Positions 35,889 to 61,887 of a stretch of DNA of 64,000 bases are shown here, one piece after another. The notes beneath the pieces were generated by a model. It did not search any database. It had not been told where the DNA came from and saw only the letters and a list, made by a program, of their open reading frames with translations. The stretch comes from Candidatus Moraniibacteriota bacterium (GTDB lineage Bacteria; Patescibacteriota; Minisyncoccia; Moranbacterales; UBA1568): contig CP064974.1 of NCBI GenBank assembly GCA_016699385.1, positions 339,042-403,041 on the forward strand. Reading direction: 5' to 3'. Both the position numbers and the translations under genes were made by a program. Numbering within the stretch: position 1 is the stretch's first letter; each line of letters begins with the position of its first letter.

Positions 35889-36079
35889 AACTTGTTGTAT
35901 GAGCAAATCCTTCAAGGTTGCGCAATTGGGAGGCAAGGTGATATGAGCAAAAGCCAAAAGAGTTGCTGACGTTCATGGTTTGGGAGTGACGTGGATTATT
36001 CGCGATGTTGTTCTTGGTAACTGAAGCGTCATGGGAGGGAGGTACAATAAGAGAAGGCAAGAGAAGCTGTGTTTTTTCT

Positions 36080-36625
36080 ATGAATTATCGCCGAAAACAA
36101 TTGAGTGCAGAGGATATTGAGCCAGTACTGCTTCGAATACAGCCGTCTCCGAAATACGGTGGCATTGGAGTTTTTGCTCTCCGCGATATTAAAGGGGGTA
36201 CGATATTATGTGATGTTGAGAAAATTAGCGAGGAAGTTTTCGTCCCCTGGGAAGAATTTGCAAAGATAGATGCGGCTACGCGATCGTTTATGATTGATTT
36301 TTGTGCCGAGGACAAGGATGGTTTCTATAGCCCGATTGATCTGAACTATCTCACCATTCCGGGACACATGAATCATCACTGTGAGGCGAATGTAGGATGT
36401 GATGCGGACGATAACTTCGTCGCAATACGAGATATCAAGAGGGGAGAAGAAGTGTGTCTTGATTACGCCTTCGTTATATCCAACCCTGCCTATACTATGA
36501 AATGCGCATGTGATTCCAAGAAATGTCGAGGGATAGTCACAGGAAATGACTGGAAAAACCCCGCCTTCCGGAAAAAGAATTCCAATTTTCTCTCATCAAA
36601 TGTGAGGAAATTTGCAAACAAATAA
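36080..36625 (+). CDS. SET-domain protein (putative protein-lysine methyltransferase) with post-SET Cys cluster
   Basis: Contains NHHCEAN (NHSCxPN-type), EEVCLDY (ELxxDY-type) and the post-SET cluster CACDSKKC. The ORF opens at 36005, but the likely start is the ATG at 36080. Confidence 0.7.
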   Translation: MNYRRKQLSAEDIEPVLLRIQPSPKYGGIGVFALRDIKGGTILCDVEKISEEVFVPWEEFAKIDAATRSFMIDFCAEDKDGFYSPIDLNYLTIPGHMNHHCEANVGCDADDNFVAIRDIKRGEEVCLDYAFVISNPAYTMKCACDSKKCRGIVTGNDWKNPAFRKKNSNFLSSNVRKFANK

Positions 36626-36667
36626 GAGAAAGTTTATTTTTTCCCCACCATTTTTCTTCAAGAGTCT

Positions 36668-36901
36668 ATGAATGATACATTGCTTAAACTTGGGAAATAT
36701 CGTCATTACAAAAACAACAAAGAGTATGAAGTGATTGGTGTAGCGAAACATAGTGAGACACTTGAGAATATGGTTGTATATCGGGCATTGTACGGAAGTG
36801 AGATTTCATCGCTCTGGGTGAGACCGCTCGCTATGTTTTTGGAAGAAGTGGAAGTGAATGGAAAAATGGTTCCAAGATTTGAGTTGTGTGAATTGGCATG
36901 A
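36668..36901 (+). CDS. Small conserved protein (DUF1653-like)
   Basis: 77 aa with the pattern GxYRHYKxxxYxVxGxAxH[TS]ET...VVYxxLYG...WVRP..MF, which I recall as the DUF1653 family. Confidence 0.45.
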   Translation: MNDTLLKLGKYRHYKNNKEYEVIGVAKHSETLENMVVYRALYGSEISSLWVRPLAMFLEEVEVNGKMVPRFELCELA

Positions 36902-37314
36902 CTATGAAGTGTAAAAAATTCTATGCTGGCGGATTTTTCTATAATCCAGTGACAAAAGAAGTATTACTCCACAAGAGAGATTCAAAAACATTGGTAAACC
37001 CGAATAAGTGGGCGTTCTTTGGCGGATTAAATGAAACTGGAGAAGCACCTTTGCAAACATTTTTGCGAGAGATAAAAGAAGAACTGGATGTGAATCTTTT
37101 TCAGGATGCCGTTAGCTGTCTCTGTGATTATTTCAATGAGGAATTACAAACTCATCGATACATATTTTTTGTAGAGAGCTCTTTGAAGAAATCAGCGATG
37201 AATCTTGGCGAAGGAGAAAGTTTCGATTGGATTTCGATTGAGAAAGTTTTTGAATATGACCTTACTAAGAAAACGAGAATGGACTTGAAATTATTTCTTG
37301 AAAAACTTGTTTGA
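36898..37314 (+). CDS. NUDIX hydrolase
   Basis: NUDIX box GGLNETGEAPLQTFLREIKEELDV (Gx5Ex7REUxEExGU). Confidence 0.7.
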   Translation: MTMKCKKFYAGGFFYNPVTKEVLLHKRDSKTLVNPNKWAFFGGLNETGEAPLQTFLREIKEELDVNLFQDAVSCLCDYFNEELQTHRYIFFVESSLKKSAMNLGEGESFDWISIEKVFEYDLTKKTRMDLKLFLEKLV

Positions 37315-37330
37315 AGAAGTAAGAAAATAT

Positions 37331-37642
37331 TATGAAAATCATTCATAAAAATCAGGTAAAGACTTTCAGAAATAATGAGAGCTGCACGGCAACTGAATAT
37401 CTGATGGGAGAGAGTGTGATATAAATAGCGCGTTCCTCGTACTGACGGGGAGATACCCGAGTGCGGGAAAGGTAGTGAACTCGAAATGTAAAGAGTTGGC
37501 GTATGTGATGAAGGGTTTCGGCAGGATTGCTGTTGAGGGAAGTGAAATCAATTGCGAAGAAGGCGGCATGATTTTTATTGAGCCTCATGAAAAATATTTT
37601 TGGGAGGGTACACTAACACTCCTTTTTTCTCATCAAATGTGA
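37331..37642 (+). pseudogene. Cupin-domain gene disrupted by a single-nucleotide frameshift
   Basis: Frame A encodes MKIIHKNQVKTFRNNESCTATEYLMGESVI*, a cupin N-terminus. The -1 frame continues with ...AFLVLTGRYPSAGKVVNSKCKELAYVMKGFGRIAVEGSEINCEEGGMIFIEPHEKYFWEG, the cupin_2 core. The junction is near 37415-37422. Confidence 0.45.
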
Positions 37643-37693
37643 GGAAATTTGCAAACAAAAAATAAGATGAGGCTAAGATGAGATTTGCACCAT

Positions 37694-38212
37694 ATGAGCT
37701 CTATTATCAACATCGAAATAAAAGCGAAGTGCGCGAACCAAGAAACAATTCGGAGAATTTTGAAAGACAGCGGCGCTGACTTTAAGGGAACTGATCATCA
37801 GATTGATACGTATTTCAAAGTGCCGAATGGGCGATTGAAGTTGCGTGAGGGGAATATAGAGAATCATCTCATTTTCTATAATCGCATAGAGACGAAAGGA
37901 CTCAAGGAATCATCGATACTGCTCTATGACTCAACGCCAGGGTCGACGTTGAAGGAAATCCTTTCGAAATCGCTCGGTATTCTTGCTGTCGTAGATAAGC
38001 GGCGGGAGATATACTTTATCGAGAATGTAAAGTTTCATCTCGACCGTGTAGAAGGACTGGGTACGTTTGCCGAGGTAGAAGCAATTGATATTGATGGATC
38101 AATCAGTAAGGAGCAACTTTCGGAACAATGCGATCGATACATGAAGCTCTTCGGTATACAAAAAGACGACCTTATTGCCGCATCGTATAGTGATTTAATT
38201 TTGCAGTCGTGA
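37694..38212 (+). CDS. CYTH-domain protein (class IV adenylate cyclase CyaB / triphosphate tunnel family)
   Basis: N-terminal EIKxK strand (INIEIKAKC), and a C-terminal ...REIYFIENVKFHLDRVEGLGTFAEVEAI... region matching the CyaB-like pattern. Confidence 0.65.
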   Translation: MSSIINIEIKAKCANQETIRRILKDSGADFKGTDHQIDTYFKVPNGRLKLREGNIENHLIFYNRIETKGLKESSILLYDSTPGSTLKEILSKSLGILAVVDKRREIYFIENVKFHLDRVEGLGTFAEVEAIDIDGSISKEQLSEQCDRYMKLFGIQKDDLIAASYSDLILQS

Positions 38213-51028: not shown

Positions 51029-51240
51029 AGTGAGAAGAAAAATGGGTAAGGGAGTCTGCGGGAGTATAGGTAAAGTATAACAGAAAAAGGGAAAAGAAAG
51101 CTATTTCTCCCTTGCGGGAATAGTTCCCGTCTTTTGAAGTATGCAGAATATTCCAAAAATCCAAAATATAGTGTAAGGTTTCAACAGGTTTGTGGCTTTG
51201 AACTCATGAAGAGGAAAAAGTTTTATTTTGTGTGATTTGT

Positions 51241-51567
51241 ATGGCATCCCAGATTTCTCCAAGAAAACCAGTGGTGAAAGTGTGTGTTCATCGCGATTGC
51301 TGTGAGGGAGGGTCGGAACGGATATACGCTCGACTTTCGAAAGAGGCTTCGTCTGATATGGACATCCGGAAGACCGAGGATTGTTTTCGGTTTTGTAAAA
51401 AAGGTCCCAATGTCGCGGTTGATGGCAATGTTCTCCATCACGTGAGTGAGGGAAATGCTCTCTCTCGCATTCGCTCCGAAATTCGTGCACCCTCTACAAA
51501 GAAGGATGGCATCGGTACGCGCACGATTGACGAACTCGATGACCTGCTCGATAACCTTTGCGCGTGA
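51241..51567 (+). CDS. Thioredoxin-like [2Fe-2S] ferredoxin domain protein
   Basis: Cys pattern CVHRDCC...CFRFC in a ~100-aa protein, fitting the Trx-like 2Fe-2S ferredoxin family (NuoE-like fold). Confidence 0.5.
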   Translation: MASQISPRKPVVKVCVHRDCCEGGSERIYARLSKEASSDMDIRKTEDCFRFCKKGPNVAVDGNVLHHVSEGNALSRIRSEIRAPSTKKDGIGTRTIDELDDLLDNLCA

Positions 51568-51662
51568 GACGAGGTGTTGCTTTCTTTTGGAACATGATAT
51601 ACTAAGCGAAAGAGTTTTTTTAATGATGGGTAACCGTACAAGGAGGGGTACACATCGCATGT

Positions 51663-52109
51663 ATGGCAGAAGAACCGATATTGAATGAAGAATGGTCTGA
51701 GGAGAATGACGTGCCGACAAAAAGTTTGATGGATCGGGTGCGAGAATTGCGGAGTAATTTCCAGAAGAGACTTGCCGAGGGGAGCGTCTTGACGTTCGTC
51801 CTGCTTTTTGTGTTTGGAATATTCTTTGGAATAGCAGCGAAAGCAGTTGCTTCGAGAAGTATTTTGATAGGGTATTGGGACTATACGATAACTCCCCAAG
51901 AAAAAGCCGCTGTGAATCTCAATGCGGTTCAACAGAGGCTCGCGACTCGTCAGGAAGAGGAGGCGAAGTCGCAAAAGGAAAGCGCCGCACCGGCGACAGA
52001 TGACGCTTCTGGTGCGGATGCCTCGAATGGTGATGCGCCAGAAGGGAAATTGCCGCCACTTCCGCCGACACCTGAGCCGCCAGCTTCTCCTGATACAGCG
52101 CAGGAATAG
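51663..52109 (+). CDS. Membrane-anchored protein with a Pro/Ala-rich tail
   Basis: 148 aa with a single TM helix (VLTFVLLFVFGIFFGIAA) and a C-terminal low-complexity P/E/A region. Confidence 0.4.
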   Translation: MAEEPILNEEWSEENDVPTKSLMDRVRELRSNFQKRLAEGSVLTFVLLFVFGIFFGIAAKAVASRSILIGYWDYTITPQEKAAVNLNAVQQRLATRQEEEAKSQKESAAPATDDASGADASNGDAPEGKLPPLPPTPEPPASPDTAQE

Positions 52110-52141
52110 GGAAACGATATATTTCCATTTATTTATGTTTA

Positions 52142-53320
52142 ATGTCGGATATTATGGATTTTCTGAATAAAAAAGATACGGATGAAAAGGATGATGATTT
52201 CGGGACATCGTTTCTCGGAGGGTCTTCTGAAAATGAGAACTTTGATGATGCTCCCGAAGAGGAACTCTTAAATGAATCGGACGAAAATCGCGAACTCACC
52301 AAGAAGGTGAAGAATCTCACTGCGCTCCTCCTCATCGTGTGCGGGCTCTTTGTAGGAAGTCTCTATGTTGATATCTCACAGCTTGTGACGAAATCGGGAT
52401 TTTCTTCGCGAGCGCTCAAGACGACGGATGTCGTCACAGCAGGAGGGAAGACCTGGGTTGCTTATGATCAGCCAGTCGTTCATGTGACCGTACTCTCTGA
52501 AGAGTCTTGCAAGGACTGTCAGACCGATGAAGCTCTCGTCTGGCTTCGTCGCATCCTGCCTACGGTGTCTGTCGAAGTACTCGATATTTCAAAAGATTCC
52601 CAGGCGAAAGATATTGCGAAATCTGCCAATGTTACGTCGATTCCCGCTTTCGTCTTCTCCAAGGAAGTGGCGAGTGTCCCGGTATATGAACAGGCACAGC
52701 AGCTTTTCACCCCGCTCAATGACAAAGAGGGTCGATATATGCTCGATACGGCGCAAGTCGGTATCCCTGTTGGGAAATATCTCGAATTACCCGAGGTGAA
52801 GGACACGGATATTCAATCGGGGTCAAAGGATGCTCCTATTCGCGTGGTGGAATTTACCGACTTCCAGTGCCCCTATTGCAAAGCCTTTCACCAGACGCTC
52901 CAAGAAACACTCAAAGAGTATGGTGACAAAGTGCTCTATGTCTACAAGAACTATCCGCTTCCGATTCACGCGCAGGCAGAAAATGCCGCTCTCGCCGGAG
53001 AATGCGCCAATGATCAAGGAAAATTTACAGATTATGCCGACAATTTGTTTGCCAAGCAAGACGAATGGGGGAAGACTACGGGTGTGCAGAAGTTCAAAGA
53101 CTATGCGCGTACACTGAAGCTTGATACCGCCCAGTTCAATACCTGTTTGGATGACAAGAAGCATCAAGATAGCGTGACAGCGAGCCTCGATGAGGGGAAG
53201 AAATTTGGTATTAGCGGTACACCGGGAACCTTTGTAAACGGCACATTCTTGAATGGCGCTGTCCCACAAAGCGACCTCAAAGCCGCTATCGACGCCGAGC
53301 TTGCGACGCTTTCGAAGTAA
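52142..53320 (+). CDS. Membrane-anchored DsbA-family thiol:disulfide oxidoreductase (tandem thioredoxin folds)
   Basis: Acidic N-terminal segment, a TM anchor, a degenerate first Trx-like domain (CKDC), and a second domain with the canonical CxxC (FQCPYCKAF) plus the DsbA helical insert. Confidence 0.75.
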   Translation: MSDIMDFLNKKDTDEKDDDFGTSFLGGSSENENFDDAPEEELLNESDENRELTKKVKNLTALLLIVCGLFVGSLYVDISQLVTKSGFSSRALKTTDVVTAGGKTWVAYDQPVVHVTVLSEESCKDCQTDEALVWLRRILPTVSVEVLDISKDSQAKDIAKSANVTSIPAFVFSKEVASVPVYEQAQQLFTPLNDKEGRYMLDTAQVGIPVGKYLELPEVKDTDIQSGSKDAPIRVVEFTDFQCPYCKAFHQTLQETLKEYGDKVLYVYKNYPLPIHAQAENAALAGECANDQGKFTDYADNLFAKQDEWGKTTGVQKFKDYARTLKLDTAQFNTCLDDKKHQDSVTASLDEGKKFGISGTPGTFVNGTFLNGAVPQSDLKAAIDAELATLSK

Positions 53321-53340
53321 TGTGATATTTGCCTGCCTTT

Positions 53341-53378
53341 GGGTCGTCGCTTGCGAGCGACGACCCTTGTCTTTTTCG
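53341..53378 (+). terminator. Rho-independent terminator after the DsbA-like gene
   Basis: 11-bp perfect stem gggtcgtcgct / agcgacgaccc with loop tgcg, followed by ttgtctttttc. Confidence 0.7.
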
Positions 53379-53430
53379 AGGTGACGCGATACACTGGAAT
53401 CCAGTTTCAGTGGCTTGTAACGGACATTTC

Positions 53431-53504
53431 GGGCCTGTAGTAAAGTGGTATTACGCAGCATTCGCATTGCTGAGTCGGGAGTTCGATTCTCCCCAGGTCC
53501 ACCA
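53431..53504 (+). tRNA. tRNA-Ala (anticodon CGC), with encoded CCA
   Basis: Acceptor GGGCCTG/CAGGTCC with the G3·U70 alanine identity pair. Anticodon arm CAGCA-TTCGCAT-TGCTG and T-arm GGGAG-TTCGATT-CTCCC. A 3' CCA is present. Coordinates ±2 nt. Confidence 0.8.
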
Positions 53505-53598
53505 AATCTTCTCTCTCGAATGTTTGAGGTGTATTTCTATGTATCGCGCCGACCATTCCTGAAGCTCTTGGAACAATACCAAGGCACAGCACCGTCGG

Positions 53599-54099
53599 AT
53601 GAATACGGAGTTTATCGAAGAACTGAAGGAATATGTGACCGAGCGCGAAGACTGCTTCGAAAGAAAACGCGAGGAAAGCACGAGGCATATTGTGGTGGCG
53701 GTTCTTCTTCTGGTGACGCTGGATTTCAAGATTTAGTGCTGGACGCAACCAGGAGGGCATGCCGACGGCAATCCGAATCTCCATACCGTCGCTCTGAAAG
53801 AACTCGAAGAGGAAACTGGAGTAACGGACGCGAAATTCGCCTCTCTTATTTCGATTGATATTCATCACTTCGATTATGCTCCCGAAGTGTTTGGGTACCG
53901 AAAGAATATCTACAACGTGTGCTTTATCGCGATTCTTCCGAAACATCAAGAGCCAAAGATTATGGAACCGAAGAAATGCGAAGCTATGCATTGGGCGACG
54001 TCGGAAAATGCCCTCGACATGATACGCTCAAAACTGCACGAAGGCGCGGAAAGGCTTATTCGAAAGTGGCAAAAATTTGGGGAAAAACGGGAAGTATAA
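53599..54099 (+). pseudogene. NUDIX hydrolase gene with an in-frame amber (TAG) codon
   Basis: A single reading frame gives MNTEFIEEL...VVAVLLLVTLDFKI-TAG-CWTQPGGHADGNPNLHTVALKELEEETGV... The stop at 53734-53736 sits 7 codons upstream of the NUDIX box. The homologous reading frame resumes downstream. Confidence 0.5.
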
Positions 54100-54149
54100 T
54101 GAAAAATGAAAAGGGGAGAATCGGGTGTTTTTCCGGTCTCCCCAATGGG

Positions 54150-54785
54150 TTAACGTATTCTTTTTTCCGCAAGGATCCAAACGTGTTTCTCATCACTCCC
54201 GTAGTCTTTTTCATTGAGAGCTTTGAGAATCGTGAGTCCACACTGTGATATGATGCCGAGATTTGTCTCCGTATCAAAATAGCTCCATGCCATTCTTGAT
54301 CCGCAGAACCCGTCTCTTTCTTTGTAGGCAACGTCTTCTGTGCCGACAGTAATGAGGAGTCGCCCGGTTGGTTTGAGCGTGCGCGCAATTTCGGCAATGA
54401 CTTGAGCATGCCGGTCTCGCGGAGTGTGGAAGAGTGCATAGAGAGAAATGACCGCGTCAAATTGTCCATTCGGAAAGCGATAATCCAGGAAATCTCCCAG
54501 GATATACTGTGCCGAGGGGACATTGTTGCGCGCCATTGCGACATGCTTTTCCGATAAGTCTATACCGGTAACTCTCAATCCTTGTTGCGTTAGGTAGAGA
54601 TCATAGGGAACTCCCGATCCCGATCCGAGATCCAACACTTTCGCCCCTTGCTCAAGTCCTTGAATGAGTTTCTTGAAAAAGAGGAGTTCAAACAGTGTGA
54701 GCGAAAATCTGTTTCGGTAAACGCTGGGATAATTCCCTTCGTTGTACCCGGTTCTTACCGTTTCCTGCATGGACCTTTCATTCAT
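54150..54785 (-). CDS. Class I SAM-dependent methyltransferase
   Basis: Motif I VLDLGSGSGV and the overall Rossmann-fold methyltransferase pattern. Confidence 0.7.
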   Translation of the reverse strand: MNERSMQETVRTGYNEGNYPSVYRNRFSLTLFELLFFKKLIQGLEQGAKVLDLGSGSGVPYDLYLTQQGLRVTGIDLSEKHVAMARNNVPSAQYILGDFLDYRFPNGQFDAVISLYALFHTPRDRHAQVIAEIARTLKPTGRLLITVGTEDVAYKERDGFCGSRMAWSYFDTETNLGIISQCGLTILKALNEKDYGSDEKHVWILAEKRIR

Positions 54786-55081
54786 GGGTCGATCCTTTTG
54801 AGGTAGGGGTGTGACAAATGAACACGAGACGTATATTGGGATGCTTCATGGCGATAATGATTGATATCGAAATATCTCCTCCTTGGAAACCATTGGTTTT
54901 GGCATAAAAACCTCGAAATCATTTGATTTCTTGGGATATTAAAGAACAATACCACACTGTATCAAGAAGTTCCCTTTTTGTAAAAGGAATTTCCCCTAAT
55001 CTTTATTACATACTTAATTGAAAATTGCACAGAGAATCATGTGCACATGATTCGAGCCCGCTCTATCGCTATCCCAAATTC

Positions 55082-55109
55082 TTGCCACCCGCGGATTTCT
55101 GCTATAATG
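55082..55109 (+). promoter_or_regulatory. Sigma-70-like promoter for ddl (TTGCCA-16 nt-TATAAT)
   Basis: Consensus -10 TATAAT about 30 nt upstream of the ddl start, with a 5/6 -35. Confidence 0.45.
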
Positions 55110-55139
55110 AGGTTCCAAATTCGTATTTGAAGTAGTTTT

Positions 55140-56240
55140 ATGAAAAAGAAGGTAAAGGTTGGGATTATTTTTGGGGGCAAGTCGGCAGAGCATGAGGTTT
55201 CTTTGCAATCAGCCAAGAATGTCATTGATGCAATTGATAAAGACAAATATGAACCTGTCCTTATTGGTGTAGACAAAAAGGGAAAATGGCCTTTGGTGGA
55301 AAGCTCAAAGTTTCTTTTAAGGAGTGGGAATCCAGAGTTAATTACACTCAACAACGAAACCGGTCAGAGCATCGCGCTCGTTCCACAAAGTGAAGGAAGA
55401 ATAGAAAACCTTGATACTCACGAATCGAATCAGTCTATCGATGTTGCATTTCCGATATTGCATGGCCCGTTTGGTGAGGATGGAACGGTGCAAGGCTTGC
55501 TGAAGCTTGCCAACATTCCTTTTGTGGGGGCAAGTGTTTTAGGTTCGGCAGTCGGAATGGACAAAGATATAATGAAGCGCTTGCTTCGAGACGCAGAAAT
55601 ACCAATAGGAAAGTTTTTGACGTTTACGGAAAGGGACATCCCGAGGTATGAAGAGGTTGTTAAAAATCTTGGGTTGCCGTTTTTTATAAAACCCGCAAAT
55701 ATGGGTTCATCGGTTGGAGTGAGTAAAGTTGTCGAGGAAAAAGACTTTGAAAAAGCAATCAAAGAAGCATTTAAATACGATAGGAAAATTCTTATTGAAG
55801 AGAATATCGAGGGACGAGAAATCGAATGTTCCATTCTCGGAAATGATGATCCGGTTGCTTCTGTTCCTGGGGAGGTTATCTCCAATCACGACTTTTATTC
55901 TTACGAAGCAAAGTATAGAGATGAACACGGTACAATACTTGAAATTCCAGCAAAGCTTCCGGAGGAGACTCGTAAAAGAGTTCAAATGCTCGCGGTAAAA
56001 ACTTTCAAAACCCTGTCTTGTGAGGGATTGGGGCGCATTGACTTCTTTCTCAAAAAGAATGGCGATATTTTGGTTAATGAAATCAACACCATGCCTGGAT
56101 TTACCTCGGCCAGCATGTACCCAAAATTATGGGAGGCAAGTGGAATTTCATATACCGAACTCATAGACCGCTTAATTCAGCTAGCGCAAGAAAGATTTAA
56201 CAAAGAACAAAAACTCAAAACATCCTATGATACGGAGTGA
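55140..56240 (+). CDS. ddl: D-alanine--D-alanine ligase
   Basis: ATP-grasp enzyme with a typical Ddl N-terminus (KVGIIFGGKSAEHEVSLQSA) and C-terminal motifs. Confidence 0.9.
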   Translation: MKKKVKVGIIFGGKSAEHEVSLQSAKNVIDAIDKDKYEPVLIGVDKKGKWPLVESSKFLLRSGNPELITLNNETGQSIALVPQSEGRIENLDTHESNQSIDVAFPILHGPFGEDGTVQGLLKLANIPFVGASVLGSAVGMDKDIMKRLLRDAEIPIGKFLTFTERDIPRYEEVVKNLGLPFFIKPANMGSSVGVSKVVEEKDFEKAIKEAFKYDRKILIEENIEGREIECSILGNDDPVASVPGEVISNHDFYSYEAKYRDEHGTILEIPAKLPEETRKRVQMLAVKTFKTLSCEGLGRIDFFLKKNGDILVNEINTMPGFTSASMYPKLWEASGISYTELIDRLIQLAQERFNKEQKLKTSYDTE

Positions 56241-56351
56241 CTTTCATGAGTTCACTAGGATAGAAAACAGTTAAACTCGATTATTGGGGAGTATTTGATG
56301 CTCACTGATAAGCCAAAAGTTTTTGGAGAATCTAATCTGTAAAAAGATGCG

Positions 56352-58046
56352 CTATTTCTCCGTGACAAGTGCGTCTGGGTTTGCGTCTTTGGAGAAGGTG
56401 ACGGAATCTTGGGTGAAGGTGCTTTCGTGAATGTCGATGTCTTTTGAAGAGGGGCCTGAAATGACGAGGCAATCTTTGCGGGCGAGGGGGCATCTCGTGT
56501 TCTTGAAGGTGATAGCTGAACTGTTGGCGATATCGAAGACAGAGCCTTTTGTCGGGACGGCGGAAATGGTATCAAATGTGAGAGAATTTGCCTCCTCTAT
56601 CTGGGAGCCCCATTTGGCGAATATTTTGATGTTTTTGAAAGTGATATCGGTAATTGGCTGTTCGATGAGTCCGCTGATTTCTATTGAGCGGTCGGTTTTC
56701 CCGACAGTCATGTTTTCTACATGGATATTGCGGAAAAGGGGGATGGCACCGACACCTTTGATGAAAGAGTTCTCATAGGAAGTAGTGAGCTGGATAGCAG
56801 CGATGGAGGCATAGTCTATCTTGATTCCATCTGCGTAAATGTTTTCAACGATACCACCACGACCTTTTGATGATTTGATGCGAAAGCCGTATTGTACCAT
56901 GTTTGCCGAGAGATTTTCGATGAAAACATTGCGTACATCGCCGGACATCTCACTGCCAATCGCGACGGCGGCATGTGCCTCGAGTATGGAATTATTGCGT
57001 ATGAGGACGTGCTCGGCGGGCATTCGGACACGGAGACCATCTCGGTTTCTGCCGGATTTGAGGACGATGGCATCGTCGCCCGTGCTAAAGACACTGTTTT
57101 CGATGAGGACGTTTTGGGAGGAGTCGAGGGCGACGCCGTCAGTGCTTTGTCCCTCGCTGGTTTCGATATGGACGCCGCGAACAATGATGTTTTTGCTATA
57201 GAGGGGATGAATCGTCCACATGGGACCGTTTTGTATGCTTACCCCTTCTACGAGCACGCGATCACAATTCATAAACTCTATGAATGCTGGGCGCAGAGAA
57301 TCCTTGACTGTTCCGAAGACGCGCTCGGATACGGGGGTGCCGTCATCTCCCATTTGGTAGAGTCTTTTGATGGGCTTGTCCCAGTTGCGCATCGCAGCCC
57401 ACCAGGCAGCTCCTTGACCATCAAGCGTGCCTTCGCCGGTGATAGCCACATTGAAGGCGTTTGCGGTGTAGATGGGCGCTGAGTAGTTGTAGTATTCGAT
57501 GCCTTCGAATCGGGAGAAGACTGCTGGCAAGTATTCTTCGAAGTTGGTGCTAAAGAGAATAGTCGAGCCTTTCTCGAGATGAAGATTGATATTGCTTGCG
57601 AGATGTATAGGACCGGTAAACCAGGTGCCGGGAGGCACGATCACAGTTCCACCGCCAGTACGGGCGCAATCGTCTATTGTTTTCCGAAAGGCTTCTGTAT
57701 TGGAAGTGACACCATCGCTTATGGCGCCATAGTCGACAATCGAGCAGGTATGCTCAGGAAAGCCAACTTCCTCAAGAGTAAATGATGCACCGGAGAGGGT
57801 TTTGAGCGTTGCGACAGATGTCGGGGGTGGGATGAGCTTGGATATATCTGGAAATTCACGAGGAATTTCGGGCGCTTCCACAGAATCAGTATTCTCTGGG
57901 GAAATTTTTTTGGTAAAGACTGTCGATGAGGAACTCAATTCGCGAAGCTGCTCTCCGTAAAGAGTCCATACTCCGAAGAGTACGCTGATAACAAGTCCCC
58001 CCAGAAGGATGAGTATCAATGGCATGCGAAAATTCCCTCGAGGCAT
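56352..58046 (-). CDS. Membrane-anchored glycoside hydrolase family 28-like (polygalacturonase-type) beta-helix protein
   Basis: N-terminal TM anchor. GH28 signature blocks STDG, GDDAIVLKSG (GDDCIAIKSG-type), AIGSEMSG (G.SIGSE-type) and FRIKSSKGRGG (RIK). Confidence 0.7.
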   Translation of the reverse strand: MPRGNFRMPLILILLGGLVISVLFGVWTLYGEQLRELSSSSTVFTKKISPENTDSVEAPEIPREFPDISKLIPPPTSVATLKTLSGASFTLEEVGFPEHTCSIVDYGAISDGVTSNTEAFRKTIDDCARTGGGTVIVPPGTWFTGPIHLASNINLHLEKGSTILFSTNFEEYLPAVFSRFEGIEYYNYSAPIYTANAFNVAITGEGTLDGQGAAWWAAMRNWDKPIKRLYQMGDDGTPVSERVFGTVKDSLRPAFIEFMNCDRVLVEGVSIQNGPMWTIHPLYSKNIIVRGVHIETSEGQSTDGVALDSSQNVLIENSVFSTGDDAIVLKSGRNRDGLRVRMPAEHVLIRNNSILEAHAAVAIGSEMSGDVRNVFIENLSANMVQYGFRIKSSKGRGGIVENIYADGIKIDYASIAAIQLTTSYENSFIKGVGAIPLFRNIHVENMTVGKTDRSIEISGLIEQPITDITFKNIKIFAKWGSQIEEANSLTFDTISAVPTKGSVFDIANSSAITFKNTRCPLARKDCLVISGPSSKDIDIHESTFTQDSVTFSKDANPDALVTEK

Positions 58047-58066
58047 AGCGGAGAGTGTTTCAAAAT

Positions 58067-59923
58067 TTATTCTGATGAAGTTTCTCGGAGAAAGAGTTGT
58101 TCGCTAGGGATGACTTTGACAAAGTTGTCCAATCGATTTCCAATTGTGAATGTATTCGCGGTTTCGTCTGTTTCGTAGGCTTTCTTGAAATCGAGCGGGT
58201 CGCTTCCGGGATGAGAGAGCTTGAGTGTTCTTGATCGACGCCCCGAGGAAACGACGACATAGTCGACGTGAAGATTGCGCAAATCTTTCTGACTGAGACC
58301 CGTGCGACATTCTCCGATAAAGGCAGCGCAGACCGCTCCCTTGTCCGACCAGATGCTGATATCGCGTGGATTGGGAAGATGATTGAGGAAGTCAGCTGCT
58401 TCCCAGCTTCCATCGCCCATGTCCTTGAGATTGACGAAATAGGGTTTTGGGAGAAGTGATGAGGTGTAAGCGAAATAGAATGGTTTGACAGAAAGAAGGC
58501 TGATGTAGGATATGGCAAGAATGATAAGGATAGCTACGAGGGGGGAGAGATATTTTCGGAGTCGCTCTGAAGAGAGGAGGAAGGAAATGCCGATTGCCGA
58601 AAGAATAAACGCGAAAGGGAAAAGAGTTATCTGATATCTGACGGTGGCAATAACATGATTGACGGTTGAGGCGGTGTAGTAGAGGAGTATGAAGATTACG
58701 AGAAAGAAGGCGATTTTGGTTTCTCTTGAATCGATATGTTTTTTCATCATACCCATGACGAGTGTCGCCATGAGCGCCACAAGTGCAAGTGGCGAGATGC
58801 CAAACATAAGGCTGTAGAGATCGGCAACAATATTGTCAGCAAAGATAAAAAGTCGGGAATCATCTCCTCCGGAGCCTTTCGGAGAGGCAAGAGAAGCATC
58901 GGTGCTAAAGATGCTCATGCCACTCAGAGTGTTGAATGCCACAAAAAGAAGGGCGATGATGAGTATGCCGAATGCAACGCGAATAAATAGTATGCGATAT
59001 TTCGAGAGCGTATTGAGGATGAATGATGTTACGGTGTTCTTGAAGAGAAGAGCATCAGCGACGATGAGGGTGATGAGTCCGGCAAAGAGCGGCCACGTAC
59101 TTGCGAAAGCCTTACTGAGAAATGTCCCTTCGAGAATCATTTCGGGGTGCTTCCATGTTGCTGGAAAGAGGGCGAAAAATGTTGCCAAGGAGATAGCGAC
59201 GAGTAAAAAGTAGTGTATTGCGGAGCGCTTCAAATAGGCTCGCATGTCTGGCTTGTCCTTGGAGAGAATGTATTCTAGGAAAGGGAGGACAAAGAAAAAT
59301 ATATAGAGAATATTGGCGACGTATTTGGTGAGGAGTGAAAGCCCGAGGAAGATACCGCTTGTGTAGAGGTACTTTTTCTCAGCATTCTTCTGAAAGACGA
59401 AATAGCTCAACACGGACAGCGGGAGAAATATCCAAAGGAGTGAGTCGGGATTGATGATGAGGGAGATGCCGAGGAGTATCGGAGAGAGTCCGATGAAGAC
59501 GAAGGCAACAAGGGCGGTTGTTTCATCGAATAATTTTTTGAGAAAAATATAGAAAAGTGGAAGAGAGATGAGGCAAAATAGGAAAATCGGAAGACGAAAG
59601 AAAAAGTTGATGTCATTGATGGCGCGAAGCTCTTCATCTGTCTTCACATCATCGCGGAGACTTTTGTAAGGAAGTGGGTCGATCTTCAGGAGTCCGGCGC
59701 CGGAGAGAATAGCGGTAGTGATGCCAGGCTTGTCATTGATATTGGTCGAACGCCATTTTCCCTCAGCGATAGCCTTCCAGAATTTTGGCGTTCGCCCGTA
59801 TGTCCAGTAAGGTTCATCGACGGCAGAGTAGGATTCGAGACGCAGGAGCCCGAGCGAGAGATTGATGGCAAGTACTGCGGTGATAATAAATGGTGCAATG
59901 TATCTTTTGTAGGATATTTTCAT
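58067..59923 (-). CDS. PMT/ArnT-family (GT39/GT83-like) lipid-carrier-dependent glycosyltransferase
   Basis: 618 aa with ~12 TM helices. The N-terminal DE-containing first-loop region and overall topology match GT-C mannosyl/arabinosyl transferases. Confidence 0.6.
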   Translation of the reverse strand: MKISYKRYIAPFIITAVLAINLSLGLLRLESYSAVDEPYWTYGRTPKFWKAIAEGKWRSTNINDKPGITTAILSGAGLLKIDPLPYKSLRDDVKTDEELRAINDINFFFRLPIFLFCLISLPLFYIFLKKLFDETTALVAFVFIGLSPILLGISLIINPDSLLWIFLPLSVLSYFVFQKNAEKKYLYTSGIFLGLSLLTKYVANILYIFFFVLPFLEYILSKDKPDMRAYLKRSAIHYFLLVAISLATFFALFPATWKHPEMILEGTFLSKAFASTWPLFAGLITLIVADALLFKNTVTSFILNTLSKYRILFIRVAFGILIIALLFVAFNTLSGMSIFSTDASLASPKGSGGDDSRLFIFADNIVADLYSLMFGISPLALVALMATLVMGMMKKHIDSRETKIAFFLVIFILLYYTASTVNHVIATVRYQITLFPFAFILSAIGISFLLSSERLRKYLSPLVAILIILAISYISLLSVKPFYFAYTSSLLPKPYFVNLKDMGDGSWEAADFLNHLPNPRDISIWSDKGAVCAAFIGECRTGLSQKDLRNLHVDYVVVSSGRRSRTLKLSHPGSDPLDFKKAYETDETANTFTIGNRLDNFVKVIPSEQLFLRETSSE

Positions 59924-60123
59924 GGGAATAATACAAAAAATGTATCTTTCAACAGCGATTTTATGATACAGGAAATGAAGAGGTTTGCAAAGAAGACATG
60001 GCTTGTAGAGAGCATTATCGCTTTACGAAGAGCGCTTGGAGGTGATAGAATACCCCATGGTATTATAGTATTGAATCGAGTACTCTCTGTCCAAAAGAGC
60101 ATGAGCTTATACGCAAAGCCTTT

Positions 60124-61887
60124 ATGAATATTCTAACGAAACATTGGGGAATTTTTGCTTTGCTTACTATTCTGGCTGGAGCGATTTTTGTGCGGACGTA
60201 TTCCTTGGATACCTGGCTCTACTTCAAGATGGATCAATCGAGAGATGCGCTCCTTATGACGGAAGTACTCGAAAATGGACCGAGCGCTTTGCCGCTTCTT
60301 GGTCCCCGAGTTGGCGCGGTGGCACTCCAGCACGGATTTCTGCGGCTTGGTCCGATTTACTACTATTTCCAATATCTATCGGGCATTCTCTTTCATTCAT
60401 CGGAACCAGTAGTCTTCGCCTACCCGGATGTATTTTTCTCGATTGCCGCCATTCCACTGCTCTATCTCTTTGCTCGGCTCTATTTCGAAAAGCGTCTCGC
60501 TTTGATGATTACCGCGATGTATGCGTTTTCATTTCTTATCATTCAGTACTCCCGATTTGCTTGGAATCCAAATTCACTGCAATTTTTTATTCTTCTGAGT
60601 TTCTACGGACTTTTGCGATTTTTGAATGAGAGTCGCCCCGCGCCGAAACGCTGGTGGCTCGCGCTCTGGGCAGTGGGGAGTGCTATCGGTTCACAACTGC
60701 ACTTCTTCGGTTTCTTCAGTTTGCTCGGCATTTCTGGACTTCTGATACTTTTCCATTTGCGCATTTGGGAGAAAGCCTCATGGAGGACGTTTGTTCAGAA
60801 AGAATCTCTTCGGCAGTTCGCGGTGTTTTCCGTTATTGTCCTCGGAGTATTCGCTGTGTTTTATACGCCGGTTATCATCAGCGATAGTCTTCGTGGCGGT
60901 GAAAACACGAGGAATTTCTTCGAAGCGCTTGGCTCAAAGGCGGAGAAAAAACCGTTTATCGAAAAACTACAGAAAACTGTGACGGAGAATCTGAAGTATT
61001 CCTGTCTTCTCATGACATCGGAATGTTATTCTGGTGACGTAGGGGATAATATTCCGATGGTGAGTTTGACGGGCATTCTTCTTTTTATGGGTGTGATGCT
61101 CGCGATTCGCGGCGTGCGAAATGAAAAGAACACTCTTCGTCGAGATTTCCTCGTGCTCATTCTCTTGTGGCTTGGTGTTTTCATTGTTCTCACAGAGCCG
61201 GTTTCTTTTCAGCTTCGCCCGCGCTTTTATATCGTCATCTTTGCTGTGCCATTTCTGCTTCTGGGCGTTCTTTTCACCTTCATCGAGGAGCGTTTCGGAA
61301 AGCGAGCGATTCTCGTGTCATCATTCATGACGCTTGGCATTGTCGCGCTCAATGCGCATGGAACATGGCTCTGGTTTGCAGAGCAAGCAAAAGCGCAAAC
61401 AAAAGCCGTCGCCGTGAAACGAACACTCATCTTGAAAACCAAAGACGGCGTGACGCTCGGGCAATTGCGTGGAGTAGCTGAATGGATATACGTGCGGATG
61501 AAGCCGGAGAATACCCTCTATTACTATGTCAAACCAGAACATCAACGCCCGATAAAATTTCTTTTGCTCTCGCAGCGGGACGCATCGCTTCGCATTGAAT
61601 TACTCAAAATGAATGGCGATCCGCACGCGCAGTTTTTTGCTATCACGCCTGCGAAGAATGGGAAAAAAGGCATTGCCAATAAATTGAAGCGTCCGGAGAC
61701 GGAATTCACGGTTCTTGAATCGAAGCAATTTGGCGAGCTTTTGGTCTCGGAAGTTGAATTTCCTTCTCGGAGTATTTCTGAGAGTTTCAAATACAAAGGA
61801 GGAAGTGGTGATAAAGCGGATCGGGAAGGAGAGAGTGACCGCAGTTATTGGAAGGATGTTTTTCCAACGACTTCTTCTAAGAAATAA
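60124..61887 (+). CDS. PMT/ArnT-family GT-C glycosyltransferase, tandem paralog 1
   Basis: 587 aa. Shares the N-terminal pattern FVRTY..D.WL.F..DQSRDA...LPLLGP..G with the two downstream ORFs. Confidence 0.6.
   Translation: MNILTKHWGIFALLTILAGAIFVRTYSLDTWLYFKMDQSRDALLMTEVLENGPSALPLLGPRVGAVALQHGFLRLGPIYYYFQYLSGILFHSSEPVVFAYPDVFFSIAAIPLLYLFARLYFEKRLALMITAMYAFSFLIIQYSRFAWNPNSLQFFILLSFYGLLRFLNESRPAPKRWWLALWAVGSAIGSQLHFFGFFSLLGISGLLILFHLRIWEKASWRTFVQKESLRQFAVFSVIVLGVFAVFYTPVIISDSLRGGENTRNFFEALGSKAEKKPFIEKLQKTVTENLKYSCLLMTSECYSGDVGDNIPMVSLTGILLFMGVMLAIRGVRNEKNTLRRDFLVLILLWLGVFIVLTEPVSFQLRPRFYIVIFAVPFLLLGVLFTFIEERFGKRAILVSSFMTLGIVALNAHGTWLWFAEQAKAQTKAVAVKRTLILKTKDGVTLGQLRGVAEWIYVRMKPENTLYYYVKPEHQRPIKFLLLSQRDASLRIELLKMNGDPHAQFFAITPAKNGKKGIANKLKRPETEFTVLESKQFGELLVSEVEFPSRSISESFKYKGGSGDKADREGESDRSYWKDVFPTTSSKK

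Follow-up and report, generated by a model that had tools for sequence, protein, structure and literature searches.

The question raised by this locus is whether an in-frame amber codon in a gene of the NUDIX family marks a recent mutation in a working gene, a stop codon that is read through, or a gene that has already decayed. The locus lies in a 64,000-nt stretch of DNA (hereafter the window) of CP064974, the circular metagenome-assembled genome (MAG) EsbW_18-Q3-R4-48_MAXAC.267 (Patescibacteria; Paceibacteria_A; Moranbacterales; UBA1568), which was assembled with CANU from Nanopore reads and polished with Racon, medaka and Illumina reads (Singleton et al. 2021, PMC8012365). This Candidatus Moraniibacteriota genome consists of a single contig of 1,111,322 bp. 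In the original prediction, positions 53599-54099 were described as one continuous frame encoding a NUDIX protein except for the amber codon. The TAG is indeed present at 53734-53736, in the frame of the ORF with its start at 53599; the seventh codon after the TAG encodes the glycine of the Nudix box, as had been predicted, and the sequence following the stop (CWTQPGGHADGNPNLHTVALKELEEETGV...) is homologous to NUDIX proteins (Pfam NUDIX E 6.6e-7, 29.8 bits, cut-off 21.1). It is also correct that the gene lies next to a tRNA-Ala gene (anticodon CGC; 53431-53504, plus strand), which was found by ARAGORN, by Rfam (tRNA, 65.8 bits) and in the alignments, and which stands 34 nt upstream of the ancestral start. 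The idea of a continuous frame, however, did not survive, as insertions of 2 nt and 1 nt, a 27-nt deletion and a 3-nt insertion are present in addition to the amber codon. We conclude that the region 53539-54099 is, very probably, a non-functional relic (pseudogene) of an accessory NUDIX hydrolase of about 195 aa, which has been drifting without selection since its inactivation.

The ancestral NUDIX gene and its five lesions

A search of a collection of 5.8 billion protein clusters gave 60 close relatives (P0001-P0060; E 1e-32 to 3e-80), almost all of 193-202 aa (orthologues about 193-196 aa), and those bearing an organism name come from Candidatus Moraniibacteriota or other Patescibacteria. 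The NUDIX family of the relic is common in Moranbacterales (Patescibacteria/CPR). All complete orthologous loci that were recovered have an uninterrupted ORF, among them 16 of 17 loci whose DNA was examined through the gene. The C-terminal two-thirds of the relic is 75-79% identical to intact proteins, and no intact allele more than 79% identical to the relic was present among the 5.8 billion clusters. The relic allele itself was not found in metagenomes by scans for its deletion-junction/TAG pattern and its spacer/start pattern; when all plausible ORF fragments of the relic were looked up exactly, the NCBI record was the sole match, and the first look-ups gave no contigs encoding the DsbA neighbour or the 206-aa methyltransferase described below.

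The titles of some of the records call for comment. The loci L006, L008, L009, L014, L015 and L018 are clearly Moranbacteria-like, and their records are titled 'uncultured Bdellovibrionales bacterium'. As L006, L008 and L009 are 77-84% identical to the window at the DNA level and have the same synteny, the Bdellovibrionales titles look wrong. Another Moraniibacteriota MAG (L020, positions 308-619; JAYTWI010000021.1) encodes only the C-terminal 103 codons of the family; N-terminal NUDIX homology is absent upstream in every frame, and this locus is a second, independent relic of the family.

The relic scores about 30 bits against the PF00293 profile (29.8-30.7; cut-off 21.1), at profile positions 26-125 only, compared with 43.1 bits (E 5e-11, profile positions 2-124) for the intact protein P0002. 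Against the Nudix-box consensus GX5EX7REUXEEXGU the relic (GHADGN-P-NLHTVAL-KELEEETGV) keeps E-U-x-E-E-x-G-U, and it has Pro at the position of the GX5E glutamate and Lys for the Arg of REUXEE. Since the same variant occurs in all orthologues in the alignment, this deviation is a trait of the subfamily and not a lesion. 3FCM, an uncharacterised protein of Clostridium perfringens, is the closest solved structure in the NUDIX superfamily. Its sequence matches that of P0002 (E 2e-6), the folds agree along the whole length of P0002, its pair of N-terminal helices included (Foldseek E 3e-10, TM 0.74-0.79), and the motif W-x-x-GGH-x-D is common to both. Compared with the superfamily, the window copy is without one beta-strand and without an uninterrupted frame, and it is not a working member.

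Aligning the DNA with the intact orthologous loci L003, L004, L005 and L001 showed that the true gene occupies 53539-54099 on the plus strand, from the ancestral ATG at 53539 to the ancestral stop codon TAA at 54097-54099. The first 24 ancestral codons (MYRRPFLKLLEQYQGTAPSDEYGV) thus lie upstream of the 53599 start, with codons 4-24 thrown out of frame by the 2-nt and 1-nt insertions. In the orthologues the sequence ..tcG ATG AAT ac.. codes for S-D-E-Y, and the ATG at 53599 arises from reading it out of frame. In-silico removal of the two insertions gives MYRRPFLKLLEQYQGTAPSDEYGVIEELKEYVTEREDCFERKREE, in which the 45 N-terminal residues are identical to those of P0002; since a native N-terminus is thereby restored upstream, the 53599 ATG is fortuitous, a product of the frameshift. 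The ORF that begins with it (53599-53736, plus strand) encodes 45 aa and is a fragment of the pseudogene; in the public record it is annotated as a hypothetical protein (QQR77869.1, IPJ67_01865), without a NUDIX pseudogene flag.

The lesions were mapped against the DNA of these four loci and about 20 intact Moraniibacteriota proteins of about 195 aa, the main DNA reference being the intact orthologue L003 (GCA_049289275.1), which has the tRNA-Ala, the spacer and the gene in common with the window. All five are given on the plus strand. The first, seen in the DNA alignment, is an insertion of 2 nt (CG) in codon 3 (53545-53548; CGCG here, CG in the orthologue), which puts a TGA (53560-53562) into the frame of the ancestral ATG, so that this frame ends as MYRADHS-stop. 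The second, also from the DNA alignment, is an insertion of a single T (53611-53613; TTT here, TT in the orthologue), which brings the homologous sequence back into frame and creates the fortuitous ORF. Two further lesions emerge from both protein and DNA alignments: a 3-nt insertion in a CTT/TTC repeat (53702-53711), which adds a Leu codon in the first beta-strand, and a 27-nt deletion (junction 53727/53728), through which nine codons (xxALFLWHA) were lost. The nine missing residues, H/R-K/R-A-L-F-L-W-H-A, belong immediately before K-I-TAG and include three that are nearly invariant (A, F and W). The fifth lesion is the TAG itself (53734-53736), which orthologue alignments trace to a Gln codon, CAG, by a C-to-T transition at 53734. 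Compared with several intact orthologues, the gene thus carries five disabling lesions. Homology does extend to either side of the TAG (E 2.8e-80 and 79% identity for the best match), but it cannot be called unbroken, with nine codons missing and a Leu codon inserted.

With two in-frame stops (TGA at 53560 and TAG at 53734), the relic offers no uninterrupted frame for a complete alpha/beta/alpha Nudix fold. Even the product joined through the TAG would have only 166 aa, compared with about 193-202 aa in the relatives. The remnant of the Nudix box (GHADGNPNLHTVALKELEEETGV; 53755-53823, plus strand) is untranslatable without read-through; there is no in-frame start codon between the TAG and a GTG at 53887, so the box cannot be translated separately either. 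A product containing the Nudix box is therefore impossible, and at most peptides of 7 aa and 45 aa are translatable.

The structural consequences were assessed on an AlphaFold2 model of the intact P0002, built from a 36-sequence alignment (mean pLDDT 95.3). In this model, the nine deleted residues make up the whole of strand E64-69 in the Nudix sheet; the W-T-Q-P-G-G-H turn and the Nudix helix come after this strand. The frameshifted segment corresponds to the N-terminal helices H4-16 and H19-34. Even if the TAG were read through perfectly, the sheet of the resulting protein would be broken and the native N-terminus missing.

Substitution pattern and reliability of the lesions

Private changes were defined as changes at sites where the other close orthologues (L003, L001, L006, L007 and L008) agree. 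We used only this close-clade form of the test, since the version with all 15 sequences was uninformative, its synonymous sites being saturated. The window copy carries 23 private substitutions in about 370 nt (about 6%), 17 of them non-synonymous and 6 synonymous, compared with 21 and 46, respectively, in the five intact orthologues (Fisher p = 5e-4). With L009 as a sixth orthologue the numbers become 15:4 and 21:42 (p = 6e-4). The ratio of non-synonymous to synonymous changes in the window copy is 2.8, and the ratio of the corresponding sites, expected without selection, is about 3.6. The direction of change differs as well: 19 of the 23 private substitutions go from GC to AT and 3 from AT to GC, compared with 33 and 29 in the intact orthologues. 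A GC-to-AT mutational bias is established as universal in bacteria, and its excess here is a signature of neutral decay, with the spectrum expected from unselected mutation. Moreover, four private replacements (A to T, P to S, R to H and S to N) fall at columns that are invariant in 18 homologues, and the same measure gives 0-1 in the ten closest relatives. Selection has thus been relaxed on this lineage, and since the pattern of substitutions and of invariant-column changes goes beyond what one recent mutation would leave, the gene must have been without selection for some time.

Could the gene be intact in the organism, and the lesions be assembly or consensus errors of a long-read MAG? Such errors could arise from a local failure of polishing where co-existing strains differ. 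The genome is Nanopore-based, and in the window another gene, the ASCH relic discussed below, is broken by a homopolymer indel. Independent short-read contigs from run SRR11674038, which appears to belong to the sample EsbW_18-Q3-R4-48 (BioProject PRJNA629478), are 100.000% identical to the window, free of mismatches and gaps, over 12,435 nt in total (6,798 nt at 46663-53460 and 5,637 nt at 54604-60240), and the consensus around the locus is accurate. The contigs are broken at the two edges of the locus, a hint of strain heterogeneity there; since they leave 53461-54603 uncovered, a second assembly confirms none of the five lesions. The two small frame-shifting insertions are the most exposed to doubt. 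The window differs from L003 by one substitution in the 320 nt of 53357-53676 and at 68 positions (15%) in 53677-54127, and both the 2-nt (CG to CGCG) and the 1-nt (TT to TTT) insertion fall within the first, near-identical stretch; in a Nanopore-based assembly they are possibly artefactual. The remaining evidence for a pseudogene is, however, independent of these indels. A clean, codon-aligned 27-nt deletion, a 3-nt insertion and a C-to-T change are atypical consensus errors, and together with the substitution pattern they are unlike polishing noise. The 23 private substitutions, with their neutral ratio and their GC-to-AT bias, stand against zero differences in the 12,435 flanking nucleotides, and the protein collection holds no intact allele above the 79% identity given earlier. 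We consider it very unlikely that the gene is intact and the lesions are errors of the assembly.

We consider it equally improbable that an otherwise functional gene has suffered one recent nonsense mutation or carries a segregating TAG/CAG polymorphism. The TAG is only one transition away from the orthologous CAG, and the C-terminal two-thirds of the relic has retained the high identity to intact proteins described above, both of which would fit such an event. The original prediction, in offering a very recent nonsense mutation as one of three options, was right about the kind of change (CAG to TAG), but not about its being alone or very recent: four further lesions are present, one of which removed a core beta-strand with nearly invariant residues, and the neutral, mutation-biased substitutions on the window branch need time without selection to accumulate. 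A decayed gene that carries the TAG as one of its lesions remains the reading that we prefer.

The proposed stop-codon read-through and the other disrupted genes

Decoding of the TAG by programmed read-through, by an amber suppressor tRNA or as pyrrolysine, to give a full-length NUDIX protein, was another proposal for this locus. The codon is in frame, and whichever residue were inserted would be tolerated, as the aligned position varies. Every orthologue covering the position, however, has a sense codon there, Gln in the closest ones and otherwise K, H, G or E; a stop is found in none of them. Nor is TAG rare or avoided as a terminator: the 49 long ORFs of the window end in TAG (17), TAA (19) or TGA (13), which indicates the standard code. 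Global reassignment of TAG is ruled out by the same count. ARAGORN and Rfam found no tRNA with a CUA anticodon among the five tRNAs of the 64-kb window, a search that covered 64 kb of the 1.11-Mb genome. The product of read-through would moreover be without strand E64-69 and, starting from the fortuitous ATG, without the 24 N-terminal residues, and hence without the N-terminal helices. Read-through is effectively refuted by the additional lesions, and we regard it as hardly credible. The locus should be struck off as a candidate site of recoding or read-through, and no unusual genetic code is indicated for this CPR bacterium.

The relic had also been counted as the third disrupted small accessory gene of the window, together with a cupin and an ASCH gene, all three supposedly in tRNA-adjacent regions. 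The disruptions are real in the sequence, but only the NUDIX relic is really adjacent to a tRNA. The ASCH relic (43566-43897) lies about 2.2 kb from tRNA-Gln. It has a 1-nt deletion in the A-run at 43597-43601 (A5, where A6 restores the frame), and the repaired product gives a full-length Pfam ASCH match (E 7e-9); as a homopolymer indel in a Nanopore-based assembly, this could be a consensus error rather than a real pseudogene. The cupin-like relic (37333-37642) and tRNA-Thr are separated by about 570 nt, in which there is an intact CYTH gene. The relic has a frameshift near 37410-37425, and its repaired product gives a sub-threshold Cupin_3 match (19.6 bits, cut-off 23.5). As both of these genes are broken by frameshifts and not by TAG codons, a TAG mechanism shared by the three is ruled out, which also counts against read-through in the NUDIX gene.

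The window also encodes two NUDIX paralogues that are intact (36898-37314 and 42961-43518). The latter has the same architecture of N-terminal helices and GGH motif, at 21% identity to P0002. Small accessory genes form clusters at 36005-38212 and 41399-44432, near tRNA-Thr and tRNA-Gln, encoding SET-domain, DUF1653, NUDIX, CYTH and nucleotidyltransferase proteins and a second NUDIX protein; the cupin and ASCH relics are found there too.

Gene turnover between tRNA-Ala and ddl

The relic occupies a variable slot that is bordered on the left by the tRNA-Ala gene and on the right by a promoter-like element (TTGCCA ... TGCTATAAT; 55054-55125, plus strand), which is conserved among loci and stands upstream of ddl, whose start is at 55140. 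The second gene of the slot, convergent with the relic, encodes an intact class I SAM-dependent methyltransferase of 206 aa (QQR77870.1; 54150-54770, minus strand), and its synteny is shared with L007, L009 and L030. In the public record the neighbours of the relic are QQR77868 (DsbA), QQR77870 (methyltransferase) and QQR77871 (Ddl).

In near-identical strains the slot between tRNA-Ala and ddl contains an intact NUDIX gene, a relic of it, no NUDIX gene, or an MFS gene instead. The loci L021 and L022 are 99.6% and 99.1% identical, respectively, to the window up to 53514, i.e., the end of the tRNA, the identity breaking within a few bases of the tRNA-Ala 3' end (about 53503-53514). Both have a gene for an MFS transporter in place of the NUDIX and methyltransferase genes, and L021 rejoins the window at 55054. 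L030 is 95% identical to the window over 54103-55268 and lacks the NUDIX gene completely, the tRNA-Ala 3' end lying about 50 nt beyond the methyltransferase terminator. In L003, the intact NUDIX gene is followed by a different methyltransferase gene, a UCP032817-like gene and a nucleotidyltransferase gene before ddl, and in L007 and L009 an intact NUDIX gene is accompanied by the same convergent methyltransferase gene as in the window. The deletion in L030, the MFS replacement in L021 and L022 and the truncated relic in L020 thus lead to the conclusion that the NUDIX gene is dispensable and has been lost repeatedly, and that the window copy is an intermediate stage.

When L021/L022, L030 and L003 are set beside the window, close strains are seen to differ in the content of the slot, and the tRNA forms a border of the variation. 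In this the slot is similar to tRNA-linked islets, as gene content changes exactly at the tRNA-Ala 3' end between flanks that are 99-100% identical; unlike them, it is only about 1.5 kb long and holds two small genes, with no integrase and no repeat. A classic tRNA-integrated island with an integrase and an att repeat is not supported, since there is no integrase ORF between 53505 and 55140 and the window nowhere repeats the tRNA 3' end in direct orientation. The tRNA-Ala gene is also found upstream of the NUDIX gene in the more distant L006, L008 and L001 (anticodon TGC in L001), which argues that the linkage to the tRNA is largely or partly inherited synteny and not the mark of an integrated element.

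We tentatively propose, as a possibility that we hold to be rather doubtful at present, that the slot may be a hot-spot of cassette exchange in Moranbacterales that operates without an integrase, where small accessory genes are swapped by homologous recombination among co-existing strains; the genes involved may be those for the NUDIX protein, the methyltransferases, the MFS transporter and the nucleotidyltransferase. Two features would fit this proposal: the mosaic nature of the relic, in which the 5' 320 nt is about 99.7% identical to one lineage and the 3' part is 15% diverged, and, in L004, a remnant of the tRNA 3' end fused to the promoter-like element.

Several further observations were made in the slot and its vicinity. 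The drop in identity to L003 at 53676/53677 indicates a recombination breakpoint inside the relic; given how sharp the change is, the 5' end appears to have been exchanged recently with an L003-like lineage. The promoter-like element is part of a sequence of about 75 nt (GAGCCYGCTCWATMGC.AYCCC ... TTGCCA ... TGCTATAAT) that resembles an extended -10 promoter and is single-copy in the window. It is also found at L021 7659-, L007 4008-, L029 451- and L004 730-; what follows it is a different sequence in L007 and L009, and the NUDIX gene in L004. Upstream of the intact NUDIX gene of L004 (730-850) there is, instead of a whole tRNA-Ala, only a short piece of its 3' end (..AGTCCACCAAATC..), joined to the element; ARAGORN detects no tRNA there, which points to a rearrangement at the tRNA end.

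Another such observation is a 16-nt inverted repeat (94% complementary), which connects the 3' end of the relic (54066-54081; GTGGCAAAAATTTGGG) with the element upstream of ddl (55073-55088). Its chance expectation for the region is, by a rough estimate, about 0.02, and the repeat could be due to chance or be a relic of an inverted NUDIX 3' end. Between the methyltransferase gene and the element upstream of ddl there are 268 nt (54786-55053) without a credible ORF. Part of this segment (54861-54994) is matched by L009 at 78%; in L009 the matching pieces are separated by an additional stretch of about 1.6 kb, a hint that the window lineage has undergone another deletion.

Behind the directly observed lesions, substitution pattern and variability among strains would lie a simple course of events. 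The NUDIX gene would have been inactivated and would then have drifted without selection, accumulating the five lesions and the GC-to-AT-biased excess of non-synonymous changes, an order of decay that we infer; the relic would represent an intermediate stage in the loss of a dispensable gene from the tRNA-Ala/ddl slot. Possibly, the loss is tolerated through the two NUDIX paralogues at 36898-37314 and 42961-43518. This is an ordinary multi-hit pseudogene, of a kind already known, and requires no new mechanism. Multi-hit pseudogenes of dispensable accessory genes in bacteria pass through nonsense mutations, small indels and internal deletion to deletional loss, and the present case resembles them in its disabling lesions, near-neutral ratio of substitutions, GC-to-AT bias and sister strains with the gene deleted. 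Nothing essential is different, the host here being a CPR bacterium with a reduced genome (1.11 Mb).

The annotation of QQR77869.1 should be changed to a pseudogene feature at 53539-54099. Recognisable pseudogenes are generally thought to be few in CPR bacteria. The locus is a tidy case of the turnover of an accessory gene in near-identical Moranbacteria, in which it is intact, a relic or absent, and as such it has a modest value for the population genomics of CPR bacteria; turnover without an integrase at the tRNA-Ala/ddl slot is the only mildly novel angle. If the slot were indeed a site of cassette exchange, the relic would be a by-product of gene flux, and pseudogene formation and turnover would be active in a reduced CPR genome.
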